64,000 nucleotides of DNA from Candidatus Magasanikbacteria bacterium UBA922 (GTDB lineage: Bacteria > Patescibacteriota > Patescibacteriia > Magasanikbacterales > UBA922), in the NCBI GenBank assembly GCA_002293825.1, contig DBDW01000012.1, forward strand, positions 25,147 through 89,146, written 5' to 3'. Below, one piece after another: positions 43,352-63,900 of the stretch; position 1 is the first letter of the stretch, and the number at the start of each line of letters is the position of its first letter. The notes beneath the pieces are model-generated. The model saw only the letters and a program-made list of their open reading frames with translations, was not told the DNA's origin and made no database searches. The position numbers and the translations under genes are program-made.

Positions 43352-44626
43352 ATGGCATCAGAAATTGTGAAAAGTATACAGTATATCTGTGACGAAAAAG
43401 GCCTCAAATATGAGGTGGTAATGGAAGCACTTCAATCTGCGCTCGGAGCAGCGTATCGCAAAGACTTCGGGAACAAGCAACAAAATATCCAAGTAGTATT
43501 CGATCCCGAGACCGGGGACATGAAAGTGTGGGATGAGAAAGAAGTGGTCGAAGATATTTCCGAAGAAACATTACTCCATGATCAGGAAGAATTGGCACGA
43601 CGACGAGAAGAAGTACGTCGTGAAGGACGCGATCTCACTGAAGAAGAGATTGCTGATTTGGTGCGCTTCAATCCGAAGACCCAGATTATGATTACCGAAG
43701 CAAAAACTCATCAGAAGAATGCGAAGCTCGGAGATATTCTAAAGATCGATCTCGAAGTACCAGGAGATTTTGGCCGCATGGCAGCACAGACCGCAAAGCA
43801 GGTAATCATTCAGAAACTTCGTGAAGCAGAACGCAGTACCGTACTCGAAGATTTCAAGAAACAAGAAGGACACATTGTCCAGGGTGTCGTACAGAGACGT
43901 GATCGACATACGGGAGGCTACATGATCGACCTCGGGAAAATCACTGGAATCTTGCCACAGAGTGAGACAGTGTTTCGTGAACGCTATACTCTCGGTAATC
44001 GTATGAAATTCTACGTGGCATCTGTAGGACAGGGAGTACGTGGTCCAGAAATTCTCCTCTCTCGCAAAGACAAGCGTATGGTATCATTCGTATTCGAACA
44101 AGAAATTCCTGAAATCGCAAGTGGAGAAGTGGTGATCAAAGGTATCGCACGTGATCCTGGTGCACGATCGAAAGTGGCAGTAGCAACAGATGACGAATCG
44201 ATCGATCCTATTGGTGCATGTGTGGGACAGCGTGGAAGCCGTATTACCACGATTATCGATGAGTTGGGCGGGGAAAAGATCGATGTGATTCTCTACAATG
44301 AAAACGCTGAAGGATATATCAAAGCTGCGCTCTCTCCTGCAAAAGTGGTGTCAGTAGAATTGAATGATGAAACAAAAGAAGCGGTAGTCATGGTAGAAGC
44401 AGATCAATTCTCGCTCGCAATCGGGCGTGGTGGGCAGAATGTGCGTCTCGCAGCAGAACTCACGGGATGGAAGATCAAAGTGGTAGAAAAAGATGGTACA
44501 CAGGTGGCGGTAAGTGATGGGGAAGTCGTAGAAGCTCCACAGGTCGTGTCTCCTGAAGTGTCTGTTCCAGAAGAAGCTCCACATGCTGAAGCTGAAGAAA
44601 CTGCTGAAGAGAAGACTCAAGAATAA
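43352..44626 (+). CDS. nusA: transcription termination/antitermination factor NusA
   Basis: N-terminal domain, S1 domain and two KH domains (GACVGQRGSRITTII; IGRGGQNVRLAAELTGWKI). Acidic C-terminus. Confidence 0.95.
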   Translation: MASEIVKSIQYICDEKGLKYEVVMEALQSALGAAYRKDFGNKQQNIQVVFDPETGDMKVWDEKEVVEDISEETLLHDQEELARRREEVRREGRDLTEEEIADLVRFNPKTQIMITEAKTHQKNAKLGDILKIDLEVPGDFGRMAAQTAKQVIIQKLREAERSTVLEDFKKQEGHIVQGVVQRRDRHTGGYMIDLGKITGILPQSETVFRERYTLGNRMKFYVASVGQGVRGPEILLSRKDKRMVSFVFEQEIPEIASGEVVIKGIARDPGARSKVAVATDDESIDPIGACVGQRGSRITTIIDELGGEKIDVILYNENAEGYIKAALSPAKVVSVELNDETKEAVVMVEADQFSLAIGRGGQNVRLAAELTGWKIKVVEKDGTQVAVSDGEVVEAPQVVSPEVSVPEEAPHAEAEETAEEKTQE

Positions 44627-44638
44627 TTGTATAACAAT

Positions 44639-44670
44639 AAAAACACCCTACATCTGTGGGGTGTTTTTTA
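44639..44670 (+). terminator. terminator after nusA
   Basis: aaaacaccctacatctgtggggtgtttttt. Confidence 0.6.
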
Positions 44671-45597
44671 TGATTTTGTGGAAAGTTTTTTCTTATTATG
44701 TGCTATGTTCTTGTGTCTAAAATTCAAAACTTTGAAATCGTTTTTCTGCAGATAGTCGTCGGTGACGGTATAAAGTACCGGGGCAAAATTAGTGGTAATT
44801 TTTTCAATTTTTTCTATATGACCATTAATGGTAGTTTCTTTGTAAATTTCATTATAGCGAAAATAGTGCGCACCTCTTTTGATGAAACAGTGATTTTTTT
44901 CAACGAGGTGAAACTTTTGTGGTATTCGATGAGGAGAGAGTATTTGTCCTTTGAGATGGGTATCGGTGAGCCATATTTTGATTTGAAGTGGATATGCTGA
45001 TGTATTTTGTACTTTGAGATCTATAAAATTGTACAAAATCGTTGCTCCTCCACCAAATGGTAATGTTCTTCGTGAATCTGGAAAAACATCCATAGAATGA
45101 TGATGTCGCTCAATGGTCTCAATCGGAGCGTGTAGAAAAATCCAATACAGAAAATTCGATAATTGACAGAGCCCGCCACCAACTCCCTCGACAATCCTAC
45201 CATGTGATAATAACATCCCATCGACATACCCATTTTCATATCGAGGTTTGCCAATAATGTTCCATAGTGAAAAGATATGCTTCGGCTGTATGACCACACC
45301 GTTTAATTTTTCAACAGCTTGTCTCAGATTGATAATTTTTTGTTCTTGTAGCCTAGGATCACTGTCTCCCAGTTTGCGTCGTAATACGGATTGATGTCTT
45401 GCTACGACACACTGAAAAAAATCCTGTCTCCTCTCATACCTAATTCTAGGATCAAAAAAGTTTTGTATGTTTCTATATATATGACGTACAGAAATAATAG
45501 GCTTTTTGAGAAATGGATATTTTCTGGAAAGCGCGATTCTTTTTGGATGTTCGTAGCGATAGATACGTGTAGCAATTTCTTTTTCGATGTTTGTCAT
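44668..45597 (-). CDS. VanW-like family protein
   Basis: 309 aa with the GGGLCQLSN motif characteristic of the VanW domain. Confidence 0.75.
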   Translation of the reverse strand: MTNIEKEIATRIYRYEHPKRIALSRKYPFLKKPIISVRHIYRNIQNFFDPRIRYERRQDFFQCVVARHQSVLRRKLGDSDPRLQEQKIINLRQAVEKLNGVVIQPKHIFSLWNIIGKPRYENGYVDGMLLSHGRIVEGVGGGLCQLSNFLYWIFLHAPIETIERHHHSMDVFPDSRRTLPFGGGATILYNFIDLKVQNTSAYPLQIKIWLTDTHLKGQILSPHRIPQKFHLVEKNHCFIKRGAHYFRYNEIYKETTINGHIEKIEKITTNFAPVLYTVTDDYLQKNDFKVLNFRHKNIAHNKKKLSTKS

Positions 45598-45643
45598 ACT
45601 TCACGCCCTAGCGTGCTCTTTTTAAAATTAAAAACGGCTAAAC

Positions 45644-46003
45644 TTATCTCAGAATTTTTTCCATCACTCTTCCTCGTGCTAATTCATCTACGAGTTTGTC
45701 GAGATATCTCACTTTTTGTGTCAACGGATTTTTGATTTCTTCGATACGATATCCGCAGATTGTACCCGTGATGAGATGCGCATTTGGGTGGAGTGTAGCT
45801 CGTTTGAAAAAAGTTTCAAATGTTACGTTTTCTTCGATGAGACTGTTTATTTTTTTTATATCAAATCCCGTAAGCCATTCGATCACTTGATTCAATTCTT
45901 CTACCGTGCGGCCTTTTTTGGTGACTTTTGTCACATAGAGAGGATAGATCGAGGCAAATGTCATGCGTGCCATTCTCTCATCGTGTTGTGGTGAGGTGTT
46001 CAT
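45644..46003 (-). CDS. DUF2200-family protein
   Basis: MTFASIYPLYVTKVTKKGRTVEELNQVIEWLTGF signature. The track ORF extends to 46138 but overlaps the next gene, so the internal Met is the more likely start. Confidence 0.55.
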   Translation of the reverse strand: MNTSPQHDERMARMTFASIYPLYVTKVTKKGRTVEELNQVIEWLTGFDIKKINSLIEENVTFETFFKRATLHPNAHLITGTICGYRIEEIKNPLTQKVRYLDKLVDELARGRVMEKILR

Positions 46004-46046
46004 AGAGTGTTTAGGTTTTCTATCGCGTACGCGATATTTTTTTAGA

Positions 46047-46454
46047 TCAATGAGTTTCGACGTACGATGTAAAATTGTTGAGTATGGATTGCCAGCCATT
46101 CCTCTGCATCTCTTCTGAATTTTCTGTTTCCGCGTCAAATATGATTGTTACCCTCGTTTTGCCATCAACATCTTCGAAAGATATGTCTACCACTCTCCCA
46201 TCATCCATCGTATACGTAAACTTTTCTCCGACAACAATCTCATCATATGTCGCTTCGAAATCAAAACCAAAACTCTGATCACGGGCTTCCATTCTCGCTG
46301 TATATGTTCCGCCGACCCGCATATCATTCTCCGCATGTGGACAGCACCAGTCGTCTGAAGCAAAGTTCCAATGCACGATATGTGCAGGATTTGTATAATA
46401 CTCCCACACTTTTTTCTTGTCTGCTGAAATTGTTGCGTGAATGGTGATTTTCAT
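46047..46454 (-). CDS. SRPBCC-superfamily protein (AHSA1/polyketide-cyclase-like)
   Basis: 135 aa. Pattern KKVWEYYTNPAHIVHWNFASDDW...GGTYTARMEARDQSFGFDFEATYDEI. Confidence 0.7.
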   Translation of the reverse strand: MKITIHATISADKKKVWEYYTNPAHIVHWNFASDDWCCPHAENDMRVGGTYTARMEARDQSFGFDFEATYDEIVVGEKFTYTMDDGRVVDISFEDVDGKTRVTIIFDAETENSEEMQRNGWQSILNNFTSYVETH

Positions 46455-46505
46455 AATTTTTTATAAAATGGACTAGAAAAATATTTTTTGAATTTGTTAT
46501 TGGTT

Positions 46506-46527
46506 GTTAGATGATATATTAAACATT
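46506..46527 (+). repeat. partial attC-like core (GTTAGAT-GATATATT) at the distal end of the cassette array
   Basis: ggttGTTAGATgatatattaaacatt lies immediately 3' of minus-strand ORF 46529..47158. It matches the 3' ends of the other elements (GTTAGnTGATGT). No partner inverse core was found. Confidence 0.4.
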
Positions 46528-46528
46528 T

Positions 46529-47158
46529 TTAATCCCCGATTTTAAGGAGTGTTCCGTGTTGCACATAAACTGGCATTTCCCAGTCGGGATGATTGGTCCA
46601 GGGATGATAAATCCATTTTTCTAAACTTTCATCTATTGTAATAATTTTGGCTGGCTCACCAAAAGCAGTTTTTATTTTTTCATTACTCCAACCTTGAAGA
46701 TCTGTTCCAATGTGCCCGATAAGACTACCTTGTCTCGCAGTTTGCATGTGTTTTAAACGCTCCAAGCGATATTCCTCTTGTGCTGATTTCAACCAATATT
46801 CCTTTTGCCAAATACCAAATGATCTAATACTAGTGATATTTGTGCTTGGAGCGAATGGATCTGGTCCCATGTTAAATCTGACTTCTCGAATAACCCAGAA
46901 TCTATTTGGGATTGAAAAAATAAAAACGATGAAAACAACGAAAGCTATTGGTATGTAAAAAATTGTAAATTTAATACTAATGCGCTTCGTTGTAGCCAGC
47001 CACAAATAATAAAAAAAGTTTAGAAAAATGGATACGATGAATGCAATCAGTAAATGCCCTCTATTCCAACCACGACCGTAAATGCCAGCCAACAGAATGT
47101 ATGCCGACACAAGACATAGAAATGCCGTGGGTACAAATAACAAGATTTTTTTCTTCAT
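46529..47158 (-). CDS. hypothetical membrane protein (cassette ORF)
   Basis: 209 aa with 3 N-terminal TM helices and no identifiable domain. Confidence 0.5.
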   Translation of the reverse strand: MKKKILLFVPTAFLCLVSAYILLAGIYGRGWNRGHLLIAFIVSIFLNFFYYLWLATTKRISIKFTIFYIPIAFVVFIVFIFSIPNRFWVIREVRFNMGPDPFAPSTNITSIRSFGIWQKEYWLKSAQEEYRLERLKHMQTARQGSLIGHIGTDLQGWSNEKIKTAFGEPAKIITIDESLEKWIYHPWTNHPDWEMPVYVQHGTLLKIGD

Positions 47159-47188
47159 AGCACGTAAATTAAAAATGTTTTATATTTC

Positions 47189-47264
47189 GCCTAACGGTCG
47201 CGTGTATGCGATGTGCGTCAGCATATGGGTGGAGCGAAGCGGAACCGCATACATGCTGTTAAAT
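47189..47264 (+). repeat. attC-like imperfect-palindromic element A (GCCTAAC ... GTTAAAT)
   Basis: 5' inverse core GCCTAAC (RYYYAAC). Arms gtgtatgcg / cgcatac. Internal ATATGGGTGGAG. 3' core GTTAAAT (GTTRRRY). The reverse strand reads ATTTAAC ... GTTAGGC. Followed on + by hairpin aatgat-gtattttcaaa-atcatt plus T7. Confidence 0.6.
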
Positions 47265-47279
47265 GATGTATTTTCAAAA

Positions 47280-47654
47280 TCATTCAGTTTTTTTACGAGC
47301 GGGCTTCACGAGCTTCATAATTAAGGTAAAAATTCCATAAAAAATAGTTGCCCAAAATATTGCATTGAGAACTATAGAAAATTCCCATACCCATGAAATA
47401 TTGTTACAAGCAGGTCGTGAAACAGTTCCGTGAAAGCCCATAACACAATCTGAATAAGTTCTAAATGGAAAACCTGACATGCCAATAACCTGCTTGCCGT
47501 TGTTTGTAGCATCAAACTCTATTTGTGCAGGGTACTCAATTTGATTGATCCTGGAATAACTAAAATCTGTTGTAAACACGAGGAGTGAAGCCCGCGTTAT
47601 TACGGCTATCAGGATACCTACTATTAGACTAATAATTAATGCTTTTTTATTCAT
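47280..47654 (-). CDS. small membrane protein (cassette ORF)
   Basis: 124 aa. N- and C-terminal TM helices with a Cys-containing loop. Confidence 0.5.
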   Translation of the reverse strand: MNKKALIISLIVGILIAVITRASLLVFTTDFSYSRINQIEYPAQIEFDATNNGKQVIGMSGFPFRTYSDCVMGFHGTVSRPACNNISWVWEFSIVLNAIFWATIFYGIFTLIMKLVKPARKKTE

Positions 47655-47673
47655 ATGATTTTGAAAATATTTT

Positions 47674-47800
47674 ATTTAACGTTCCTGCGTATGCGATGTT
47701 TGCCAGCGGTATAATTGCACGAAGTGCTTACCACTGGCAAATATGGGTGGAGGCTTGCGGAGGTACGGAGAAAGCCGTAACCGCATACGCAGTGTTAGCT
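47674..47800 (+). repeat. attC-like imperfect-palindromic element B (ATTTAAC ... GTTAGCT)
   Basis: Homologous to element A. It keeps ctgcgtatgcgatgt, ATATGGGTGGAG and aaccgcatacgcag, and has an inserted hairpin tttgccagcgg...ccactggcaaa. An 11-bp closing inverted repeat ctgcgtatgcg/cgcatacgcag. Followed on + by hairpin ccgacggtagtcgg plus ttgtttt. Confidence 0.6.
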
Positions 47801-47862
47801 GATGTATTCCTTTTCTTTTCCGACGGTAGTCGGTTGTTTTAAAAATTTTCAAATTTCTTTTT

Positions 47863-47990
47863 CCGTTTTGGGTGGTGGGCAGAGGGGAATTAAAGGGGTG
47901 AATGCCCGCCACCCAAAACACCTATTTCTGGTTTGAGGGAGGGGCAAGAGGGGAACTAAAGGGGTGAATTGCCCCGACCGAAAACATTCT
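47863..47990 (+). repeat. two tandem ~60-nt hairpin repeats with conserved loop AGAGGGGAAyTAAAGGGGTGAAT
   Basis: Copy 1 is gggtggtgggc-AGAGGGGAATTAAAGGGGTGAA-tgcccgccaccc. Copy 2 is gagggaggggc-AAGAGGGGAACTAAAGGGGTGAAT-tgccccgaccg. Located between the 878-aa gene stop and element B. Confidence 0.5.
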
Positions 47991-50625
47991 ATTGTTTCAA
48001 AAAGGCAATAATTATATTTAAATCTTCAGTTTTCAGTGGGTTTTCATTTGAGTTCTGTGTTGCATGTGTGCCACGATTACTCAGATCATTCCAGTAACCC
48101 TCTAGCTTTTTAATATCTTCTTCTTTCTTATCAATTTTTTTCAGATTTTCCCAAGGTACACCAACTCCACGAAGTCGATCTTTCATTAAACCAGTTTTTA
48201 ACAAAATTTTCTCGTCAATATAATGCTCAATTGCTGATTTTAAGTAACCAGAAACACAACTCAAAGAGTAATCGCTTTTCATTTCATTTTCCGCTTTCTC
48301 AATAAAATAGCTACAGGATTCATTCTGTGCTTCAAATATTCTGCCTGTTTTATCTTTTGACTCTCTGTCTACCTTGTAGGTGTAAACATGACAACCTTTG
48401 CCATTGCAACCTTTCTGTGTGTAATTTTTGCAAATATGATGAGTTTTATTGGTTGTTTCATTTTTAAGACTGTTTCCCCAATAAATCAACGAATCGTAAA
48501 ACAGTTTGTTATGCGTGAAAATTATAATCTGCCTATCTGATGACAGTTGTAAAAGTTTTTTAGCTAAAAAATCAGCTACTTCGTGATCAACACTGGTAAC
48601 AGGATCATCAAAAACAATTGGACATATATCATTTTGGCTTTCAATCTCTGCGAGAAATAATGCAAGCCCGACAGCCTTTTGTTCGCCATCGCTTAAAATT
48701 GCACGAACATCGTTTCCTAAAATTTTAAGCCTTGTACGAACAGATCCTTTGCCTGCCCCAGTCTTTTCAAGGCTGACTTCAATATTTTTACCCAAGGCTT
48801 TTAGTTCGTCTTCAAAAGATTGCCTTATTGAGTCCGTCAAAAGCTCATCGTGTGCCTTTGATCCCAACTCTGTAATTCCTCTAGTGCTTATACTTTGTTT
48901 TACGCTTTCATATTTTTGAACAGACTTGCAAATTGCAAAATGGCTTTCTATTTTTGTCTTCCATTTTGAAATATTTTGTTTGTCTTCAAGCTTGTTAATC
49001 TCAGTTAAATAACCGCTTATTTTCTGTGTTTTTTGAGTATCGGATTGCTGTAAATCATCTAGCTCTTTTTGCTTTTTTTCTGATAGTTCCTTTAGTTTTT
49101 CATCGGTATTCAATAGGTCTAGCGCATACTTTTCAGCGGTAGTCGCCTTGTCTTTTAACGCCCTTTCTATATCTTCTTTTTTCTTTGCAGCCACTACTAA
49201 CACTTGTTCAATTAATGTCTTATAATCTTGCTTCTGGTCGTTCTGTATCTCGGTTAAAGTTTTTTTCAAATTTTCTGAAAGAGTGAAATCCGTGACCAAA
49301 TCATCAATTTCTTTCTTCAGCTCGGTAATTTTATCAACAGAATCTTTGAAATTTTGTTGCGACTGATCATCCAAATATTGAGCGTATGCCTGAACAAGTT
49401 TTATGGCCTCCTCGCCTAACGGCTGGTGGCAATAGATACATTTTTCCTCATGATTAAAGACGGTCTGGTCAATTTTTGCGACATATTCTTTCGCCGATTC
49501 AATAAAAGTTTGCCATTCCTCACTGTCTTGAGCGGGTATATTTTTTAAAACTTCAAATTGTTTTACTCGTTCATCCCTTATTTTCTTTTTCTCTAAATAA
49601 TCCTTTATGGCAGAAAAAGTATTTGCTGTTAATTTCTCAAGGTTTGTTTTAACGTCAGATAAATGATTGTAAAGATCATCAATTTCTTTCTTTTCTTGAT
49701 TCAATACTTTTTTACTATCTTCCGTAGTGTTTTTTTCAAGGGAAGTCTTGTCTATTTTAAATTGAGCTAGTTGTGTTGCATCCTCCTCGGTAAAAAGTTT
49801 GTTAGTATCTAACAGTTGTTCTTCCTGTTCTGTTAATGAAGTTTTGCCAAGTAATGTTTTTAGATCATCAGAGTGAATAATATCGATCAATGTCTGTAGT
49901 TCGGGAGACGAGTCTTGCTTTTGTTGTTTCGCTTGATTTAACCTCTCTTTAAATTCATCAATAATTGTTGCGATTACTTGAAAAAAATTTAGCCCGAGCG
50001 GTTCTATGTTCACCGAGCTTTCGCGCTCATCTAAGAAAATTGGTAAATATTCTGTATCAAAAACTTTGATTTGACTGAATGGTGCAATGCCTCGGACCAA
50101 TTTATTATCCCATTTGAAAGTATTTTGTGTTTTATCATCTAATAAATAATCTACATGAACCTCTAATCCATCACCCTGATTATGGATGTTATCTAAAATA
50201 TCTTTAGACTTGATACCGCCAGCAAGCTCATTGATAATTCTGAAATAACCACTTTTCCCAGTGCCGTTAAGTCCAAAAATTATAGTACATGCAGGACTTA
50301 ATGTTATTGATTGGTTTGGAATAAGAGCATTAACGCCTTTTATATGAGTGATTTTTTGTAAAGAAAGTTTTTGTTTTTTTGAATTGTCTAGGGTTTCAGC
50401 TTCTACAATATCCTCTTGTTTTATCTCTTCATTATTTTCCTGATCATCCGTAATCTGATTTTCCTTTAGAAGCTCTTGAAATATTGCATTTTTTTCGGCA
50501 TCCGAAATTTTTGCATTGGCATCTATTACTTTTTGAATCAACAAAACAAGCCATTTTGGCGTGTCGCTTTTGGCTTTGTATTCAAGCAGGTAGTCCTTAG
50601 CATGTGATTTTGTTGAGTTACTCAT
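47989..50625 (-). CDS. ABC-type ATPase with a long coiled-coil insertion (AAA_13 / RloC-PrrC-like architecture) plus a Cys-containing C-terminal domain; candidate defence or abortive-infection protein
   Basis: 878 aa. N-terminal Walker A IIFGLNGTGKSGYF. About 450 aa of predicted coiled coil. Signature-like ILSDGEQKAV. Walker B PIVFDDPVTSVD. H-loop IIFTHN. About 190-aa C-terminal domain with CKNYTQKGCNGKGCH. AT-rich relative to the core genome. Confidence 0.7.
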   Translation of the reverse strand: MSNSTKSHAKDYLLEYKAKSDTPKWLVLLIQKVIDANAKISDAEKNAIFQELLKENQITDDQENNEEIKQEDIVEAETLDNSKKQKLSLQKITHIKGVNALIPNQSITLSPACTIIFGLNGTGKSGYFRIINELAGGIKSKDILDNIHNQGDGLEVHVDYLLDDKTQNTFKWDNKLVRGIAPFSQIKVFDTEYLPIFLDERESSVNIEPLGLNFFQVIATIIDEFKERLNQAKQQKQDSSPELQTLIDIIHSDDLKTLLGKTSLTEQEEQLLDTNKLFTEEDATQLAQFKIDKTSLEKNTTEDSKKVLNQEKKEIDDLYNHLSDVKTNLEKLTANTFSAIKDYLEKKKIRDERVKQFEVLKNIPAQDSEEWQTFIESAKEYVAKIDQTVFNHEEKCIYCHQPLGEEAIKLVQAYAQYLDDQSQQNFKDSVDKITELKKEIDDLVTDFTLSENLKKTLTEIQNDQKQDYKTLIEQVLVVAAKKKEDIERALKDKATTAEKYALDLLNTDEKLKELSEKKQKELDDLQQSDTQKTQKISGYLTEINKLEDKQNISKWKTKIESHFAICKSVQKYESVKQSISTRGITELGSKAHDELLTDSIRQSFEDELKALGKNIEVSLEKTGAGKGSVRTRLKILGNDVRAILSDGEQKAVGLALFLAEIESQNDICPIVFDDPVTSVDHEVADFLAKKLLQLSSDRQIIIFTHNKLFYDSLIYWGNSLKNETTNKTHHICKNYTQKGCNGKGCHVYTYKVDRESKDKTGRIFEAQNESCSYFIEKAENEMKSDYSLSCVSGYLKSAIEHYIDEKILLKTGLMKDRLRGVGVPWENLKKIDKKEEDIKKLEGYWNDLSNRGTHATQNSNENPLKTEDLNIIIAFLKQ

Positions 50626-51028
50626 CTTTTAGCTTTTTGTTAATATCTGAAAATGTTTTGCTGAAGTCTTTTTTTAACTCATGCTCCCAAACCCGGATCA
50701 CGTGCCAGCCTTCTTTTTTATAATGCCGATTCACCTCCTTATCACGTTCTTTATTCCGTGCGATTTTCTTTTCCCAAAACTCGGTTCTTGTTGCCGGCAT
50801 GGAGCCGTGTTTTTTGCAACCATGTCAGAAACAAGAATCCACGAAAATTACGGTTTTGTATTTCGGTAAAACAATGTCGGGCTTTCCGAAATACTTTGTT
50901 GAGTTTTTGAGATAACGATAGCCTTCTTTCCATAACGCTTTGCGGAGTAAGATCTCAATTTTGCTGTCCTTGTTTCTTACTTTGGACATGATGTCACTGC
51001 GTTTTGTTTTGGAAAAAATATCGGCCAT
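50618..51028 (-). pseudogene. vsr: very-short-patch-repair endonuclease gene interrupted by an in-frame TGA at the conserved Trp
   Basis: Two track ORFs sit in the same frame. The first ends ...KYKTVIFVDSCF, then a stop, then HGCKKHGS, then MPATRTEFWEKKIARNKERD...GWHVIRVWEHE. Together they reconstruct the Vsr motif FVxGCFWHGCxKH except TGA replaces TGG. Confidence 0.7.
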
Positions 51029-51030
51029 AG

Positions 51031-52113
51031 TTACTTGATAAATCGTATTTGGAGATTGAGCTTGATAAACAATTCGCCGTTTTCTTCGTAAATTGTGCCA
51101 TAGCCGTGACGAGTCGCACTAGGCGATTCCATGCGTGTATTGTTGAACAGGTAATTTCGAAATGCTTCGGCATTGTAGAGGTGATAGCAAACTATTTCGC
51201 CGTCTTCGCGAACAATGATCACGCCTCCGTGCGCTCGTAAAGTTCCGTCCCAAGGACTTGCGGGGACCATACCCAAAGCGGCGTTATTGAGTAGGGATTT
51301 GATTTTGTATTCGTAATCTTCTGTTGTGAGGTTGAAAGTCAAAATTTGCACTTCTTCATCTTGCAAGTGTTGTAGTAGTTCGGGAAAAGTTGAGCCTTTG
51401 TCGGAAAAATAAGCCAAAAGAACCTCTGCCATTATTTCAGGCATAATCGTATCAATTTTTCTCAAATTTCGTTCAAAAACTTCGGAATCAACCTTATGAA
51501 AAGCGAAACTTCCGCCAGCTTCACGAATCGCAAAAAGTCGATCACGAATTTTTGACTTGGTGTCGATTGCGTTTATCCTTTTTAGATTCTGTTTATCAAG
51601 CCCTGTTATTTTGTATGTAAAATTGGTCGCCCCCGAAGCGTTGAGCAAGGTTGCTGGCGAACCCAGTTTTGATTTAATGCTGAATCCGATTTCATGATCT
51701 CGTCCGATCGTGTGATCATGCACTTTTAAAATCAGGTCTTCTTTTCGTGAATTTCCCGCATTAAGTGTTTTAACTGCAAGACGATCAAAAAGTTCCTCTG
51801 CGAGCGGAACGGAAAAGGTCTGTGACTTTTCTTTGATTTCACTAAAAATTTCCACAACTTTGGTTTTTAAGTCGGAAGTATCAACGATTGCCGTTTCTCC
51901 GTTTCCGTGTAGGATTTTGACTTTTTCTCCTTCTTGCAATTCGTATTCCAGCTTTCCTTCGGATTCTTCACGTATGATTTTCAAAATGGGAAAGAAAATC
52001 GCCTCGATTTTTTCGAGATCTTGATCTGCGCCGATAATTTTCTTGTCGACGAGCAGTTTTATAAAAGCGTAAAACTCGCTCCATTCTCCTTTATTTCCTG
52101 TGATCATAAGCAT
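51031..52113 (-). CDS. putative type II restriction endonuclease (family not recognized)
   Basis: 360 aa. Co-oriented, and overlapping by 23 nt, with the upstream C5-MTase gene. Possible PD-(D/E)xK-like stretch VDTSD...EIFSEIKEK. The call rests mainly on context. Confidence 0.45.
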   Translation of the reverse strand: MLMITGNKGEWSEFYAFIKLLVDKKIIGADQDLEKIEAIFFPILKIIREESEGKLEYELQEGEKVKILHGNGETAIVDTSDLKTKVVEIFSEIKEKSQTFSVPLAEELFDRLAVKTLNAGNSRKEDLILKVHDHTIGRDHEIGFSIKSKLGSPATLLNASGATNFTYKITGLDKQNLKRINAIDTKSKIRDRLFAIREAGGSFAFHKVDSEVFERNLRKIDTIMPEIMAEVLLAYFSDKGSTFPELLQHLQDEEVQILTFNLTTEDYEYKIKSLLNNAALGMVPASPWDGTLRAHGGVIIVREDGEIVCYHLYNAEAFRNYLFNNTRMESPSATRHGYGTIYEENGELFIKLNLQIRFIK

Positions 52114-53008
52114 TTAGTGATTTTATAATTTGTTGTGCGACCGCATTAATCGCATTGACGGCAACAGCATTGCCAAGCTGCTTCATGGCTTGTACTTCCG
52201 AAACCGGAAACTCGAAGTCATCAGGGAAGCCCATCATTTTTTTACCTTCAACGGGCGACAATCTTTTTACTTTACCTTTCACTCTGTAAGCGTCCCAATT
52301 TCTGCGGTCATCAATTCCCGATCCACGACCTCCGCAACGTAGTGTGTAGCCGACTTCTTTTTCGCAAGGTGCGCCCCAAATATCGGACATGGTTTTTTCA
52401 AGTTTGATAGGTTCGGGAAATTCAAATTCCACATCCGGATCACGAAAACCGACCATGAATAATCGCGGACGATGTTGTGGAAGTCCGAAATCGGACGCTT
52501 TCACAATTTTGTAGTGGAAGGAGTAACCAAGATCTTTGGTAATCGTGTTTTTTATAACTTCAAATGTTTTGCCATTGTCGTGCTTCAGTAGATGACGGAC
52601 GTTTTCAATAAAGAAAGCACGTGGTTGTTTTTCCTTGATAATTCGCACGATGTCGTGAAAGAGTGTGCCTCGCGTGTCTGCAAATCCTTTTTTGAAACCG
52701 GCTTGTGAAAACGGCTGACAAGGGAAACCTCCCGTTAAAATATCAAAGTCCGGGATTTCCTTTTCATTCACTTTGGTTATGTCGCCCGCAAAAAGATTTT
52801 TACCTTTTGCGAATAAGCCCACTTCAAAAAGTTCAGGCTGTATTTTTCGGAAATTATGTTCGTATGTCTTGCGTGCGTGTTCATCCCATTCACTCACAAA
52901 AACACATTTTGCGCCCGCATTATGAAAAGCCAAGTGAAAGCCGCCTATTCCTGCGAACAGGTCAATGAAAGTTATATCTCGTTTTGTCTTTTGAGTTTTT
53001 GCTTTCAT
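52091..53008 (-). CDS. DNA (cytosine-5)-methyltransferase, short-TRD, M.HhaI-like backbone
   Basis: Motif I FIDLFAGIGGF. Motif IV GFPCQPFS. Motif VI ENV. Motif VIII QHRPRLFMVGF. Motif X GNAVAVN. 305 aa. Confidence 0.9.
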   Translation of the reverse strand: MKAKTQKTKRDITFIDLFAGIGGFHLAFHNAGAKCVFVSEWDEHARKTYEHNFRKIQPELFEVGLFAKGKNLFAGDITKVNEKEIPDFDILTGGFPCQPFSQAGFKKGFADTRGTLFHDIVRIIKEKQPRAFFIENVRHLLKHDNGKTFEVIKNTITKDLGYSFHYKIVKASDFGLPQHRPRLFMVGFRDPDVEFEFPEPIKLEKTMSDIWGAPCEKEVGYTLRCGGRGSGIDDRRNWDAYRVKGKVKRLSPVEGKKMMGFPDDFEFPVSEVQAMKQLGNAVAVNAINAVAQQIIKSLNAYDHRK

Positions 53009-53011
53009 AGA

Positions 53012-53320
53012 CTATTTTATTAAATCGTTAATATCCACTTCCAAGCCTTGTGCAACTTTGGTTAGTGTTTCTATTGTGGGGTTTCCGTTTGTTCCCGATT
53101 CCAAAGTAACAATGGTATTGAGTGCAACATCGGCAAGTTTTGAAAGGCGATCTTGTGATATGCCTTTCTCGGTACGGATTCTTTTCAGATTTTTTCCTAT
53201 GTTTGAAATGTTTGGTTTCATATACCGGTAAAATGTAATATTTTCACTGGTTGTATTGTATCGTGTTTGAAAGTTTGGGTCAATTTTATAAAAATGTTCC
53301 GCTGATAGGCGGAACTCCAT
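53012..53320 (-). CDS. XRE-family HTH controller (C-protein-like) of the R-M module
   Basis: HTH IGKNLKRIRTEKGISQDRLSKLADVALNTIVTLESG. The likely start is the internal Met MKPNISN (about 53221), giving about 70 aa. Sits immediately upstream of the MTase on the same strand. Confidence 0.7.
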   Translation of the reverse strand: MEFRLSAEHFYKIDPNFQTRYNTTSENITFYRYMKPNISNIGKNLKRIRTEKGISQDRLSKLADVALNTIVTLESGTNGNPTIETLTKVAQGLEVDINDLIK

Positions 53321-53458
53321 ATATTCCCCTCATCAAATAAAGCGTTTCCGTAGCGTAACGGAGGAAACACCATATTTCCCCTTAATAAAAAAAGAAAAAG
53401 AAATTTGAAAATTTTTTAAAACAATTGGGCGATAGCCCAGAAAAGAAAAGGAATATTT

Positions 53459-53640
53459 CAGCTAACGTTCGCCGATATCAGATGTGCCGCCATTGTTTTC
53501 AGCACATACTTTCATTTACCATTATTCATTGTAAGCACTTCAAACCTGCAATTCAAGAAGCGGCATATGGGAGAAGAAAATTGCGCCACATTTGAAAATT
53601 CCAAGGCGAAATTTTCTGAACCTGATATCGGTTGTTAGCT
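53459..53640 (+). repeat. attC-like element C: 23-nt inverted repeats AGCTAACGTTCGCCGATATCAG / CTGATATCGGTTGTTAGCT flanking ~140 nt
   Basis: tttcagctaacgttcgccgatatcag ... cctgatatcggttgttagctgatg. The ends share cTAACGTTCG and GTTAGCTGATGT with elements A and B. Confidence 0.6.
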
Positions 53641-54054
53641 GATGTTTGTCTCACGGCGTTTGTAAAGAAAAACTCCGTTAACAAAAATCGCCCATACCGA
53701 AACGGCTATCGCAATAATACCAGCTTTTATCAACTGAGAAGGGCTTGAGCCAGTCTGCGACTGTACTTGCAAGATTCCAATCAGAACAATAATGATTGCT
53801 ATGTAGCTTACGATCGACTGCCGAAAGTGATCGGCGATTTTTGGTTTATGCAGCTTTTCGAGCCGAAATATTAACCCATTGCCAAGCCAGAATAGAAGAG
53901 TGGATACTATGATGAAAACTATTAGAAGGAGGATAGTGCCTACTAACGCTACTTCAAGTTCCATTTGAATTATTGCAAGCACGATAGTGTCTAAGAAAAA
54001 TCCAAATGCGAGAAAAGCTGCATAAACAATAGGCGATAAGATTTTCTTAAGCAT
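53635..54054 (-). CDS. small membrane protein (first cassette ORF next to the recombinase)
   Basis: 139 aa with 4 TM helices. Confidence 0.5.
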   Translation of the reverse strand: MLKKILSPIVYAAFLAFGFFLDTIVLAIIQMELEVALVGTILLLIVFIIVSTLLFWLGNGLIFRLEKLHKPKIADHFRQSIVSYIAIIIVLIGILQVQSQTGSSPSQLIKAGIIAIAVSVWAIFVNGVFLYKRRETNIS

Positions 54055-54176
54055 AGCGATTGATTTATGAAAAGTTTAGTGAGGCAAATTTCAGCTAACT
54101 CCTTTTATACGAACAATTGGGTATTTCCGCTAAAATAGAGTATACTTTACCTATCTATGTGAAATCAAGGAGGGGT
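54055..54176. promoter_or_regulatory. attI-like junction between the recombinase gene and the first cassette; contains core AGCTAAC (GTTAGCT on the cassette strand) at 54093..54099
   Basis: tttcagctaac repeats the 5' end of element C. A strong SD aaggagggg lies 6 nt before the recombinase ATG. Confidence 0.45.
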
Positions 54177-55037
54177 ATGAATTCACTATATCGTAGTTCA
54201 AATTATCGACCAAGCCGTGACCCATTGGTTCTTTTTGTACAAGAAATGAGATTAAGAGGATTAAGTGATAAGACTCAAAAGTCGTATCATTATTATTTGG
54301 ATGAATGTCTGAGGTTTGTCGACTATAAATCTCCAAAAGAAATTTCAGCTGCTGACGTTCGGAGTTATTTGTTGTGGCTTGCTGATAATCATAAAAGTGC
54401 CTCAACGTTGAATATTGCATATTCGGCACTGCAATTTTATTTTCAAAAAATTCTTCGTAGAAATTTTTTTGCCATGATTCCACGTGCAAAAAAAGAAAAA
54501 CGTTTACCGGTCGTACTTTCGCAAAAAGAAATACAGAGCTTGATTGGTGCGATTACGAATAGGAAGCATCGTGTAATAGTGGAATTGCTCTATGGATCTG
54601 GATTACGTGTGGGTGAGGTGGTGCGAGTTCGGATGAAGGATATTGATTTGGATAGGATGCAATTACATGTAGTGCAAGGGAAAGGATCAAAAGATAGGTA
54701 TACTATTATCCCACGTTCTATCTCTACTATTCTTGCTACGCAAATGAATGTAAAACAACCGAGTGATTTTTTGTTTACCAATGGGCATGGTGGACGATTA
54801 CATGAACGTAGTGTGCAAAAAATTGTTACTCGAGCTGCGCAGACTGCTCGGATTTCCAGGTCGGTGAGTGTACACACGCTTCGTCACAGTTTTGCGACTC
54901 ATTTACTCGAAGCTGGTACGGATATTCGATATATCCAAGAATTGCTTGGTCATACAAAGATTGCTACTACTCAAATATATACGCATGTAGTACGATCAGA
55001 TTTAAATATGATTACGAGTCCACTGGATCGTATATAG
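54177..55037 (+). CDS. tyrosine site-specific recombinase, XerC/XerD-like (no IntI-specific insertion)
   Basis: N-terminal SAM-like domain (LSDKTQKSYHYYLDECLRFV). Catalytic R (LLYGSGLRVGE), K (GKGSKDR), HTLRHSFATHLL, LLGH and Y (TTQIYTHV). Only about 35 aa lie between the GKGSKDR and HTLRHSFA boxes. Confidence 0.85.
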   Translation: MNSLYRSSNYRPSRDPLVLFVQEMRLRGLSDKTQKSYHYYLDECLRFVDYKSPKEISAADVRSYLLWLADNHKSASTLNIAYSALQFYFQKILRRNFFAMIPRAKKEKRLPVVLSQKEIQSLIGAITNRKHRVIVELLYGSGLRVGEVVRVRMKDIDLDRMQLHVVQGKGSKDRYTIIPRSISTILATQMNVKQPSDFLFTNGHGGRLHERSVQKIVTRAAQTARISRSVSVHTLRHSFATHLLEAGTDIRYIQELLGHTKIATTQIYTHVVRSDLNMITSPLDRI

Positions 55038-55094
55038 TTGATTTTCCCGTACATATCCGCTATACTCCCTCACATATCTATTTAATACTACTGT

Positions 55095-55856
55095 ATGGTG
55101 CAGTTTTTTACCACGACTATTTACCAGCCGATTTTCAATCTCTTTGTCTGGTTCTACAATCTCGTCGGAGATGTAGGTGTTGCGATTTTATTGATCACGA
55201 TCTTGTTCCAGCTCATCTTGTACCCACTAAACAACAAATCCATCCGAGCCCAAAAACAACTCGCTGATTTGCAGCCAGAATTGGAGCGTATCAAGCGTGA
55301 GAATAAGGGTGATCAGCAGAAATTGGCTACGGAGACTATGAAATTGTATAAGGATAACAAGATTAATCCTTTTGGTTCATGTCTTCCGGTACTCATTCAG
55401 ATTCCGATTTTCCTCGCACTGTTCTACGTATTTCAGAATGCATTCCGTGAGACATCGTTTGAATTATTGTATCCATTTGTGAGTAATCCAGGATCGATTG
55501 ATCCTGTGATGTTTGGTATCTACGATCTCTCGGGAAATAGTGCGGTCTTGGCAATTCTCGCAGGTATTGCACAATTTATCCAAACCAAAATGCTGATGGC
55601 AAAACGACCTCCAGTAAATGCAGGGGAAGGAGCAAAGGATGAATCGATGGCTGCGCTCATGAATAAGCAAATGCTATATATGATGCCCGTGCTTACGGTA
55701 GTAATCGGATTCCAGTTTCCTGCAGGAGTGGTATTGTATTGGTTCTTCCGCACCGTGTTGTCGATTATCCAGCAATGGCTCGTATTTCGCTCACATTCCA
55801 CGGGTGACGGCCCTACTACTGGCGGAGACGTGATTGAAGGGAAGATTGTCTCGTAG
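55095..55856 (+). CDS. yidC: membrane protein insertase YidC (short form)
   Basis: 253 aa, 5 TM. Conserved NPFGSCLPVLIQIPIFLALFYV region. Confidence 0.85.
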   Translation: MVQFFTTTIYQPIFNLFVWFYNLVGDVGVAILLITILFQLILYPLNNKSIRAQKQLADLQPELERIKRENKGDQQKLATETMKLYKDNKINPFGSCLPVLIQIPIFLALFYVFQNAFRETSFELLYPFVSNPGSIDPVMFGIYDLSGNSAVLAILAGIAQFIQTKMLMAKRPPVNAGEGAKDESMAALMNKQMLYMMPVLTVVIGFQFPAGVVLYWFFRTVLSIIQQWLVFRSHSTGDGPTTGGDVIEGKIVS

Positions 55857-55890
55857 AAGTTGATGAAGTTTTTGATGATATTACCGTGAT

Positions 55891-56190
55891 ATGAAACTTA
55901 GCGGTTCACAAGTAATGAAGATGCAGGTATACACCGCATCAGGTGTGCGTGTGGGACGTGTGCGAGATATTTCAATTGATGTGGATACTGGTGTTGTGTG
56001 TGAATATTTTATAAAAACAGGATTTCGTACAATGCGTACAATTACTCGTGAACGCGTGATACGGATCGAATCAGATCGGCTCATTGTCGAAGATCGTGTC
56101 ATCGAGACCGAATCTTCTCCTGAGTCGGTAGCCCCGGTGTGTACCTCGGTTTCCACAAATCCTATTACCCAAGACAAAACCTCCTCATGA
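55891..56190 (+). CDS. PRC-barrel-like small protein (putative)
   Basis: 99 aa. VYTASGVRVGRVRDISIDVDTGVVCEYFI resembles PRC-barrel/YlmC-type folds. Competes with minus-strand ORF 55881..56177. Confidence 0.35.
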   Translation: MKLSGSQVMKMQVYTASGVRVGRVRDISIDVDTGVVCEYFIKTGFRTMRTITRERVIRIESDRLIVEDRVIETESSPESVAPVCTSVSTNPITQDKTSS

Positions 56191-60959: not shown

Positions 60960-63900
60960 ATGCGTGTAGATTTTTTTTTAAAAAAAACGATTATACTACT
61001 TCTGGTAGTTTCTTTGATTTTTCCTCAATCTGTATTTGGTGAAATAAGTAATGGAATGGGTGCAAGTGATGTTATTGGGCAATATACAGATGACGGAGAA
61101 GGAAATCTAACCCCAAATTATACAAAAAATGGTGAAAATAATGGTCCTTCAAATTTAGGCTTTAATGCCCCTGCGTGGTCTGCTATTGATACTGACGGAC
61201 ATTATTTTTTTGTTTCAGATTCCAGTAATCATCGGGTACTTATTTATGAGCTCGATGAAAATAATGATTTTTTGGATTATAAAGCTGATTACGTACTTGG
61301 ACAGAGTGATTTTTTTGGTGATTCTCCAACAACGACACAGTATGGATTGAATAGTCCACAAGGACTTGCCTATGATTCCATAAATAAGCGATTGTTTGTG
61401 TCCACTCTCTCAAGAGTCATGGTTTTTGATTTTACCAATGGCATTACCAATGGCATGAACGCAAGTTATGTTATTGGTCAGGATAATTTTTTTACTTCGT
61501 CTGGGTCAGTGTCTCAAACACGTATTAGTGGTGCGAGAGGTTTAGTGTATGATGCTGCTAACAACAGACTTTTTATTGCTCAGTCAAGTGCCCATCGGGT
61601 TACAGTATACGATGTGTCTACAAGTACGATGGCAAATGGTATCCCTGCAACTCATGTGATTGGACAAAACTCGTTTACTACTTTTTCTTCTGTTACAACG
61701 CAAACAGGCATGTCGGGTCCATATGGGTTGGCATATGAATCAGAAACAGGACGTCTGTTTGTTGCTCAGTACAACAACAATAGAGTGCTTGTATACAATG
61801 CCTCTCCTGAAAATTTATTGGTTACAAGTACTCCCGCTACTCATGTGCTGGGTCAACCAAATTTTACCTCCAATTCTATCGGTCTTACTTCGGTCGGAAT
61901 GTATCAACCCTATGGATTGGCGTTGGATTCAAGTACCAATCGATTATTTGTGGCGCAGTCAGGGGGTAATAAAGTCGGGGTGTACGATATAGCAACAAGT
62001 ACTATTTCAAATGGTATGGCAGGAATACATGTTCTTGGTCAACCAGATTTTAATATGCTTGTGAGTGAGGGCAGTGGTACGTTTAGACTAGGTAATCCTC
62101 GGGGTGTAACGTTTGATCATACGAACAATCGTCTCTATGTGGTCCAGGATAGTTGGGCTCGTATTAGTATTTTTGATGTTACGACAGGTACAATTGCAAA
62201 TGGGATGGATGCTGTTGGTATGCTTGGGCAATTTACCAAGGTGGGTGCTGACACGTATGTGCCTAATTATAACAAAACAAGCAAGAACAATGGTCCAAAT
62301 GAATTTGGGCTACACACACCTACGGATATGGCGCTTGATGAGAGCGGTCATCGTTTGTTTATCTCAGATGCCTCTGGTAATCGTGTATTGATTCATAATC
62401 TTGATGCAAATAATCAATTAATTGATTACCAGCCTGATTATGTATTGGGACAACAAGATTTTAATGCGAATACAGCTACCACGACACAAAGCGGAATGAA
62501 TGGTCCTACGGGTTTGGCATATGCTGAAGAATATGATTATTTATTTGTTGCCGATACCACGAACAATCGTGTACTTGTTTTTGATGTTTCGTCGGTGACC
62601 AATGGAATGAATGCAGCATATGTATTGGGTAGAGATGATTTTAGTTTAAGTTTTCAAAGCTTTACTATTAATGGAATGTACGCCCCTCAAGGAGTGCTTT
62701 ATGATCCAGAATCTGATTATTTATTTGTTGCTGATACTACTAATCATCGTGTATTAATTTTTTCTATTTCTCCAGATACAATTTCAAATGGAATGAATGC
62801 GATTGATGTGCTTGGCCAGACAAATTTTTATGAGAGAGTGGAGCGTGTTACGCAGCAGGGGCTTAGCAATCCGATTGGTCTTGCGTATGATCTTGAAAAT
62901 AATAGACTTTTTGTTGGTCAGTCGAGTAATCGAATCAGTGTGTTTGATATTTTACCTCCTCAAGAAGGTGCGTCACATGGACCTTCTGCTATTGGTGTGC
63001 TTGGTAAGACTGATTATGATGAAAATAATAATTTAGTGCCAACATTTGATAAATTTGGAAGAAATAATGGTCCAAATAATCTTAACTTTAACTGGGCAGA
63101 AGATTCGATTGTAGACACGACTAATCATCGACTATTTGTCTCTGAGAGGGAGAATAACCGAGTATTAGTGTATGAGCTGAATAATCAGGGGTATCTGGAG
63201 GATTATAAGGCAGATTATGTGTTGGGTAAAACAAATTTTAATTCTAGTGGGGCCGGGAATACACAATCATTGATGAATATCCCTGAAGGATTGGCATATG
63301 ATGAGGTTAATCAGCGTTTGTTTGTAGCGCAGTCAGGTAATCATCGTGTCACGGTCTACGATCTTTCAGGTGGCATTACAAACGGAATGAATGCGAGTTA
63401 TGTGTTGGGACAGAGTACGTTTATTGGAAATACACCAGCAAACACTCAAGCAGGAATGAATTCTCCTATGGATGTGGTGTATGTTACTTCTACACAACAT
63501 CTATTTGTAGCGCAGTCAGGTAATCATCGTGTCACGGTCTACGATCTTTCAGGTGGCATTACAAACGGAATGAATGCGAGTTATGTGTTGGGACAGAGTA
63601 CGTTTACCGTAGGAACTTCTGCGACTGCTCAGGATCGTATGAGTTCTCCAATTGGAGTTACCTATGACACTCTAAATAATTTATTGTTTGTAGCACAATC
63701 TGCTAGTAACCGTGTCACGGTCTACGATCTTTCAGGTGGCATTACAAACGGAATGAATGCAAGTTATGTGTTGGGACAGAGTACGTTTACTGGCTTTCTC
63801 TCAACGTCTACTCAATCCGGGCTAGGGTCTCCGAGTGCTGTTGAGTATGACATTCAAAATGAAAGATTATTTGTGTCAAATGGTAACCGTGTCACGGTCT

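Follow-up and report, generated by a model that had tools for sequence, protein, structure and literature searches.

The stretch analysed here, 64,000 nucleotides (nt) of contig DBDW01000012.1 from Candidatus Magasanikbacteria bacterium UBA922 (hereafter the window, with positions counted from its first letter), carries a run of minus-strand genes that are separated by imperfect palindromes and headed by a divergently transcribed tyrosine recombinase. This locus is very probably a chromosomal gene-cassette platform of the integron type. Established are how its sites are built, that they are linked to the recombinase, where the crossover falls and that cassettes turn over; the cassette system is natural, widespread and apparently active. 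Integron-type arrays are known; what is new is an integrase variant that lacks the insert of the integron integrases (IntI) and is paired with a hairpin geometry of its own. For comparison, 80 loci encoding relatives of the recombinase were examined; individual loci and contigs are cited by L numbers. The main features, listed from the recombinase towards the far end of the array, are as follows.

54177–55037, plus strand: tyrosine recombinase of 286 amino acids (aa), starting at ATG 54177 after AAGGAGG, with Pfam Phage_integrase and SAM-like N domains
54088–54176, plus strand: attI-like site and recombinase promoter region, with the half-site ATTTC-AGC-TAAC at 54088–54099
54093–54099: lone half-site AGCTAAC, left half only (full copy 54088–54099)
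54100–54114: conserved TCCTTTTATACGAAC, followed by a conserved −35/−10-like stretch up to the ATG
53466–54098, minus strand: cassette 1, a 139-aa membrane protein (open reading frame (ORF) 53635–54054) and site C; ends complementary over 21 nt
53453–53648, plus strand: site C, complete, AGCTAAC...GTTAGCT
47680–53465, minus strand: cassette 2, 5786 nt with six ORFs, two 56-nt hairpins and site B; ends complementary over 27 nt at 93%
47667–47808, plus strand: site B, complete, ATTTAAC...GTTAGCT, hairpin fold with z = -4.2, 84% identical to a site in L013
47195–47679, minus strand: cassette 3, a 124-aa membrane protein (ORF 47280–47654) and site A; ends complementary over 26 nt
47182–47272, plus strand: site A, complete, GCCTAAC...GTTAAAT, recovered by the structural scanner
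46506–47194, minus strand: cassette 4, a 209-aa membrane protein (ORF 46529–47158); ends complementary over 28 nt at 86%
46483–46520, plus strand: site D, truncated, ...GTTAGAT, with L' box and right core only

The three complete sites are built on a common plan. The left half has ATTTC, then a triplet that varies and TAAC, and continues through about 6 nt of spacer (GTTCGC) into an L box of 9–11 nt; beyond a variable centre, the right half has the L-box complement, about 3 nt of spacer and then GTTA, a further triplet and GATGT. Site C thus reads ATTTC-AGC-TAAC, GTTCGC, the L box CGATATCAG, a variable centre, CTGATATCG, GTT and GTTA-GCT-GATGT. The L boxes pair despite their differing sequence, which is GTATGCG in sites A and B and GATATCAG in site C. 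Site D, which shares 82% identity with the right part of site C, is the last recognisable element at the far end of the array. Sites A to D and the lone half-site bound the four minus-strand cassettes. The initial annotation had described four related palindromes with attC-like core ends in an array lying wholly on the minus strand, and both descriptions hold: the palindromes are present at their reported positions, and every gene-sized ORF from 44668 to 54054 is on the minus strand.

The 18-nt left end of the sites occurs three times in the window, against 0.09 expected. A structural scanner that required TAAC, a spacer, an 8-nt L box, its complement, a shorter spacer and GTTA recovered sites A, B and C and nothing more on both strands of the window (128 kb), and no further copies were found outside 46.5–54.1 kb within the 64 kb. 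Across the window and related loci (924 kb) the strict scanner gave 53 matches against 4.1 in shuffled sequence; a loose version that allowed one L-box mismatch gave 88 against 68 and was dropped. An Rfam scan of 44000–56000 returned no relevant match, and CATTTGGGTGGAG at 45781, which lies within a DUF2200 coding region, was taken as a chance occurrence. The centres of sites A, B and C share (C/A)ATATGGG(T/A)G(G/A)AG (47222–47234, 47740–47752 and 53564–53576), and a related stretch, AAATTTGGGTGAAAG, is found at about 9070 in L083.

The flanks of the sites follow a rule that holds across each cassette. Within the window, a stretch of 21–28 nt flanking each site on the right is the reverse complement of the stretch that flanks the following site on the left. 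Over 11 loci, the triplet adjacent to the core matches across the cassette in 31 of 35 neighbouring pairs, compared with 3 of 46 comparisons within the same site and 116 of 1874 between loci, and identity over 15 nt of flank reaches 10.8 across the cassette, compared with 5.9 inside a site and 4.9 from one locus to another. Integron cassettes are cut at G|TT, and the left core of a site then agrees with the beginning of the cassette to which it belongs, not with the right core beside it. Judged from these sequences, the rule is the integron signature of circles that would have been inserted at G|TT. The crossover is placed at the TAAC core because the half-site left at attI is the TAAC half. 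Triplet mismatches occur in the window (46506–46512 versus 47189–47195; GAT versus GGC in cassette 4), in L053 (1441 versus 1963 and 4342 versus 4862), in L071 and in L066. They affect four of the 35 pairs and, in addition, cassette 4 of the window, all of which keep the distal complementarity; in most of these, including three of the four pairs, the left core reads GCC-TAAC. Such mismatches might arise from branch migration or from a second cut position.

When the sites were reconstituted as they would stand in a circle, the outer (R) stem reached at least 18 bp. The cores NNNTAAC and GTTANNN are invariant in 40 of 40 sites, and the centre is variable. The triplet of the R stem is paired in 39–40 of the 40 sites by three or four pair types, and positions 12–18 are paired in 29–34 of 40, again with three or four pair types each; positions 10–11 hold mostly T.T and T.G mispairs, T.G being present in 35 of 40 sites. 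The inner (L) stem measures 8–11 bp and uses 3–4 pair types per position. In 25 reconstituted sites the paired fraction of cells is 92.1%, compared with 60.4% after shuffling, and the covariation score is 0.796, against 0.187 in shuffles (none of 500 reached 0.796) and 0.08–0.13 with a slid partner. Twelve pairs of the R helix, which was not a selection criterion, are changed on both sides. On the TAAC arm, which is the arm of the cleaved core, 2–3 extra bases (GTT, GT or GTC) directly follow the core. The canonical geometry of two extrahelical bases with an unpaired spacer was not found; a 2–3-nt bulge and T.T/T.G mispairs stand in its place.

In 39 of 40 sites the gene-antisense strand forms the more stable fold, the mean difference being 3.9 kcal/mol (Wilcoxon p = 4e-8); the reconstituted site of cassette 3, for instance, folds at -29.1 kcal/mol on the plus strand and -21.3 kcal/mol on the minus strand. 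The largest ORF is opposite to the hairpin strand in 34 of 35 cassettes, most of which hold a single ORF. These strand relations agree with the bottom-strand logic of integrons and are at odds with terminators acting on the mRNA. The checks suggested at the outset that were run in silico all favour the integron-like reading; in the folding and comparison of the sites, attC-like behaviour shows in the paired L boxes, the conserved R cores and the complementarity across cassettes.

The array ends at a conserved insertion site. The lone AGCTAAC core ahead of the divergent recombinase, reported earlier, was confirmed, and the gap between the first cassette ORF (54054) and the recombinase is refined to 122 nt because the true start of the recombinase is ATG 54177; a TTG at 54117 was rejected as the start in favour of this ATG and the AAGGAGG before it. 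The distance from the end of the half-site to the recombinase ATG is 78 nt in the window and 78–79 nt in at least 16 genomes, which bears out the proposed order of integrase gene, attI and cassettes. In an alignment of 15 genomes, the sequence to the left of ATTTC-NNN-TAAC is not conserved and NNN itself varies; the sequence to its right is conserved, including TATACGAAC and the promoter-like stretch. Several contigs from other samples begin or stop precisely at 54099. An exact search of the metagenome contigs did not find the window's own attI, and no conserved dif-like duplex site could be defined with any confidence within attI.

Comparison of the same locus in relatives shows that its cassette content differs and that strains part precisely at the core, as the cassette interpretation had foreseen. 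In the syntenic L083, whose recombinase is 71% identical, nusA lies on one side and the recombinase, yidC, the next genes and groEL on the other; between nusA and the recombinase it has only a Fic gene and a 210-aa gene, and none of the 11 genes of the window. A core variant, CAAC/GTTG, travels with the cassette in L083. In other samples of the lineage, cassette 1 and site C are followed by three different cassettes (L093, L094 and L095): after the core of site C the window reads GTTA|GCTGAAATATTCC, L094 GTTA|TATAACATTT, L095 GTTA|TCGGAAATAAT and L093 GTTAG|GCGAAATATAT. A pair from Spirochaetota, L066 and L068, is 99.6% identical up to attI; there L066 has an additional 1.4-kb cassette, complete with site, that is missing from L068, and the two diverge after GTT. 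Of 56 related genome contigs, 30 end no more than 600 nt upstream of the recombinase and none downstream, and about half of the related genome assemblies are broken at this one spot.

Two contigs bear on excision. In L097, site A is joined to the start of cassette 1 at GTTAG, the product of recombination between site A and attI; this junction would derive from an excised circle of cassettes 1–3 or from a tandem copy. From another sample, a contig of 6909 nt begins at one core and stops at another, covering exactly 54099 to 47191. With only five bases common to the two cores, a k-mer chimera is an unlikely explanation. We infer a free circle from one short contig together with the core-to-core contig.

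Several further observations concern copy number and array shape. In L094 (ERZ761600 NODE_9600), the 900-nt contig of cassette 1 has a coverage of 120, against about 50–53 for the flanking chromosomal contigs, which suggests that cassette 1 is present in more than one context or copy in ERZ761600. Duplicated cassettes occur in L053 (three copies, 93–99.7% identical) and in L068, and L081 has pairs of sites 87 nt apart ('empty' cassettes; 15943–16030 and 18316–18403), each before a duplicated 112-nt site. An apparent difference between L001 and window positions 53570–53992 is a run of N, and L061/L062 (Clostridia) were not used as a before/after pair, the difference near attI being a 95-nt duplication-like stretch.

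The recombinase itself falls between two families. Its best family match in NCBIfam is TIGR02249, the integron integrase, at 244.3 bits with the match split in two and a cut-off of 265; it also matches NF040815 (XerA) at 234.8 bits, above the cut-off of 220, and the NCBI name of that family is 'site-specific tyrosine recombinase/integron integrase'. A sequence search of the PDB gave VchIntIA (2a3v) at 164 bits, XerA at 140 and 128 and XerD at 90, and Foldseek placed 2a3v first, followed by XerA 5hxy and 4a8e. Residues 20–190 align to 8–181 of VchIntIA and residues 207–286 to 241–320, leaving 16 residues in place of the 59 of VchIntIA. In the AlphaFold model (pLDDT 85.5) there is no helix at 193–209, between the helices at 180–192 and 210–223. 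The catalytic positions R, K, HxxR, H and Y are invariant in 25 homologues, and the five array-linked homologues tested all lack the IntI insert, all pass NF040815 and all fail TIGR02249 (212–238 bits). On the basis of the family scores, the structure matches and the gap of 16 against 59 residues, we place the enzyme between IntI and XerA, without the IntI insert. The initial annotation was right that an insert is absent, and its figure of about 60 aa becomes a net deficit of about 43; where it described the enzyme as XerD-like, the matches to IntI and archaeal XerA are closer than that to XerD. The recombinases of inverted arrays (L063, L066/L068 and L073) show an apparent extra N-terminal extension of 60–100 aa relative to the window enzyme, with starts as predicted.

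Relatives of the recombinase are found mainly in Candidatus Magasanikbacteria and other Patescibacteria, and the Patescibacteria loci with enough upstream DNA have the same sites upstream of the gene in the same orientation (seven in L053, two each in L040 and L071). In relatives at 43–47% identity the sites, four to eight in number, are oriented the other way and lie downstream of the gene; the hosts of this inverted layout, which is also known from some integrons, are Bacillota including Paenibacillus cookii (L063, L073 and L079), Spirochaetota (L066 and L068) and Ignavibacteriota (L081). A 19-base site pattern was found in at least 120 metagenome contigs. Strict sites in metagenome contigs are co-oriented by 94 to 1, all five recombinase homologues in such contigs are on the expected side and strand, and some contigs are filled entirely by arrays of six to eight left half-site matches.

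In the mechanism that we propose, the recombinase encoded at 54177–55037 would act on the attI-like site just upstream of its own gene and also on the hairpin site that terminates each cassette. A cassette would leave as a circle and enter at attI, with strand exchange within the core GTT (TAA|C on the other strand). In the circle, both cassette ends would pair to form a stem of at least 18 bp that holds the invariant TAAC/GTTA core, followed by a bulge of 2–3 nt (GTT), a second stem of 8–11 bp of varying sequence and a variable tip. The plus strand, antisense to the cassette genes, would be the one that folds and is exchanged, as in integrons and in the CTX phage/XerCD system, and since the GC skew is positive, this strand would be the lagging-strand template, which would favour its folding. 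The bulge and the two conserved mispairs would stand in for the extrahelical bases that are read by the I2 helix of IntI.

A number of points weigh against an integron-type platform. The evidence is wholly computational, and no recombination was observed directly. The enzyme lacks the insert (I2 helix) that published work deems necessary for attC recombination and scores below the curated TIGR02249 cut-off, and the bulge lies on the opposite arm from the canonical extrahelical bases. Four of the 35 cassette pairs break the triplet rule and keep the distal match, for which a single fixed crossover is inadequate. The covariation of the L helix is partly built in because the scanner required L-box pairing, and the L097 junction is explicable by tandem duplication rather than by a circle. 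Finally, 75 of 80 site-bearing metagenome contigs have no recombinase, which may reflect fragmentation or arrays without an integrase. Because the IntI insert, the curated IntI score and the extrahelical-base geometry are all lacking, we do not file the locus as a canonical integron. The sites, attI, the cassette rule and the turnover nevertheless support the non-canonical integron-type platform that was one of the two readings first put forward.

The competing account that survives best, although we regard it as unlikely, takes the recombinase as the single Xer dimer resolvase of the host, the upstream site as its dif and the cassettes as Xer-exploiting elements that stack like integrative mobile elements exploiting Xer (IMEX). 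Single-recombinase Xer genes often adjoin their own dif, and XerCD integrates the folded single strand of the CTX phage. The window enzyme and all array-linked homologues tested pass NF040815, no other tyrosine recombinase was seen near the locus and candidate-phyla recombinases have been classed as Xer stand-ins (PMC8138268). However, the neighbouring genes vary between species, and the modules are single, promoter-less-looking ORFs with their own hairpin sites, not phages or plasmids. Nor does the locus lie at the terminus, which also counts against a resolvase and its dif: GC skew is positive to its left and to its right, and the cumulative curve climbs on either side and is flat only over the inverted array itself. 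The two roles are moreover compatible, as recombination between attI sites could also resolve dimers.

Classical double-stranded recombination between the left cores ATTTC-NNN-TAAC, with the palindromes serving another purpose or arising as a by-product, would suit an enzyme without the I2 helix that IntI uses on folded DNA. The left cores are indeed direct repeats, and the rare triplet mismatches could reflect an overlap region of 6–8 bp with heteroduplex. We consider this account improbable all the same, for it leaves unexplained the complementarity of cassette ends over 15–28 nt, the covariation of the L stem and the better folding of one strand in 39 of 40 sites through conserved T.G pairs. 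That the palindromes are dispersed repeats (repetitive extragenic palindromes (REP) or miniature inverted-repeat transposable elements (MITE)) or transcription terminators lying near a recombinase by chance is extremely improbable, even though they are intergenic and imperfect and most site-bearing metagenome contigs lack a recombinase, since none occurs elsewhere in the window, the sites invariably share one orientation and lie to the attI side of the recombinase, the cassette rule holds, strain breakpoints fall precisely at the core, the stems lack a following T-run and it is the gene-antisense strand that folds better. REP/MITE repeats scattered without linkage to a recombinase had been named at the outset as an observation that would count against the reading; within the window, the sites are confined to 46.5–54.1 kb.

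Set beside known systems, the integron-type platform shares with integrons (sedentary chromosomal integrons and the inverted-integrase group included) a recombinase beside a conserved insertion site; co-oriented, mostly single-ORF cassettes; cores resembling RYYYAAC/GTTRRRY, degenerate paired L boxes, a variable tip and a crossover inside GTT; an R'' complementary to the core remnant with which its own cassette starts; better folding of the gene-antisense strand; defence genes in the cargo; and both divergent (window) and inverted layouts (L063, L073, L079, L081, L066 and L068). It differs in a recombinase that is without the I2 insert and fails TIGR02249, in an R stem of at least 18 bp (7 in integrons) with conserved T.T and T.G mispairs, in a 2–3-nt bulge after the cleaved core on the same arm where integrons have two spaced extrahelical bases on the other arm, and in hosts that include Patescibacteria and Bacillota. 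Integron strand exchange takes place between A and C of RYYYAAC on the bottom strand, and the canonical extrahelical bases are usually G and T, about 6 bp apart (PMC7439510).

With archaeal XerA/dif, XerS and XerH the platform shares a passing NF040815 score, 5hxy and 4a8e as close second matches and the absence of the I2 insert. XerS and XerH genes adjoin their site, as here. Unlike those systems, the locus shows no skew switch, has a variable cassette array after the site and uses long hairpins as partner sites, and the recombinase scores slightly nearer to IntI than to XerA (164 versus 140 bits). In CTX-type IMEX, Xer recombinases without I2 recombine a folded single-stranded DNA hairpin, whose central region is imperfect, with a duplex chromosomal site; a single strand exchange takes place and the product is resolved by replication. 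These elements offer the best precedent for the way in which an insert-less enzyme might act at this locus, although here gene cassettes without phage or plasmid functions, a single IntI/XerA-like enzyme and regular arrays are found.

The pdif modules of Acinetobacter plasmids are alike in being accessory-gene modules bounded by Xer-type sites. Their sites are 28-bp XerC/XerD duplexes in alternating orientation with no linked recombinase gene, whereas the array has co-oriented hairpins of 70–190 nt, a dedicated recombinase and attI. With these differences and no GC-skew switch, the dif-module-like array that had been the second of the initial readings is not upheld. IntegronFinder would report the array as a cluster of attC sites lacking integron integrases (CALIN) if its attC model recognised the sites, as the recombinase would not be called IntI; unlike a CALIN, the locus has a conserved, intact recombinase and attI. 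Some published CALINs may belong to the insert-less system.

The literature offers several points of contact. Cury et al. 2016 (PMC4889954) found a few insert-less recombinases near attC sites, judged them not to be IntI and set them aside, and in Firmicutes genomes the same study detected no complete integron. Escudero et al. (PMC4792948, PMC7790495) trace single-strand recombination back to the gain of the I2 helix, Smyshlyaev et al. 2021 (PMC8138268) report that the insert is incompletely conserved in the integron-like group and the archaeal integron study had few IntI genes beside its arrays. Within the open full-text literature, subscription-only papers being outside the scope, we found no description of Patescibacteria integrons or of arrays with an insert-less integrase.

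The cargo of the cassettes is accessory. It had been described as small membrane proteins and defence genes, and this was confirmed by an HpaII-type restriction-modification system and a PDC-S06 ATPase. Cassette 2 encodes a helix-turn-helix control protein, a cytosine-5 methylase, an HpaII-type endonuclease, vsr in two pieces and the 878-aa ATPase, which matches the PADLOC candidate defence family PDC-S06 at 663 bits. The membrane proteins of cassettes 1, 3 and 4 (139, 124 and 209 aa) have no family matches. The ends typical of cassette 2 occur elsewhere on restriction-modification cassettes in L085 and with other cargo in L084. The vsr gene (50618–51028) is broken into two ORFs, of 67 aa for the N-terminal and 60 aa for the C-terminal part; the same split is present in other contigs of the lineage, and the relative L085 has an intact vsr of 136 aa. 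A cassette promoter-like match at 54168–54139 on the minus strand is at chance level (3 found, 3.0 expected). Two further features accompany the array.

47865–47920 and 47931–47986, plus strand: tandem 56-nt hairpins with the invariant 22-nt loop GAGGGGAAYTAAAGGGGTGAAT, between the last gene of cassette 2 and site B
44668–46454, minus strand: VanW-like, DUF2200 and AHSA1-like genes (Pfam), between nusA and site D

The 56-nt hairpins have covarying G+C-rich stems on GTTTTG...CAAAAC feet and no Rfam match. Further copies lie in L013 (7815), L040 (5503 and 7069), L071 (5966), L084 (6935) and L085 (2894 and 7934), in each case at the 3' end of a large cassette, with some 85 nt between the hairpin and the right core of a cassette site. 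They were rejected as intrinsic terminators, as no T-run follows them on either strand, and may be structured elements or protein-binding sites.

The VanW-like, DUF2200 and AHSA1-like genes are missing from the syntenic L083 and may be decayed cassettes; no half-sites were found among them (44668–46454). At 45644–46454 the longest DUF2200 ORF overlaps the AHSA1-like ORF by 92 nt, and its real start is probably further in because gene calls in other contigs give 119 or 151 aa. Downstream of groEL, internal repeats of about 180 nt with 76–82% identity (63318–63967) lie in a gene whose product, of about 2200 aa, has fn3 and NHL-like domains.

Taken more broadly, we think the chances evenly balanced that the system is a large, previously undescribed sister lineage of integrons, spread over candidate-phyla bacteria, Bacillota, Spirochaetota, Ignavibacteriota and perhaps Archaea, in which an IntI/XerA-like enzyme without I2 acts on folded single strands and the strand is chosen through the bulge and the T.G/T.T mispairs, and which would possibly represent the state before I2 and possibly be the source of many integrase-less attC clusters. 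Integrons are currently defined by an integrase with a specific insert; here is a cassette system whose integrase would never have had, or would have lost, the I2 helix. It would provide a living comparison for the step at which I2 was acquired and a second structure-specific recombination tool, and it might account for arrays without a recognised integrase. It would also widen cassette capture to the ultra-small bacteria of the candidate phyla and to Gram-positive bacteria.

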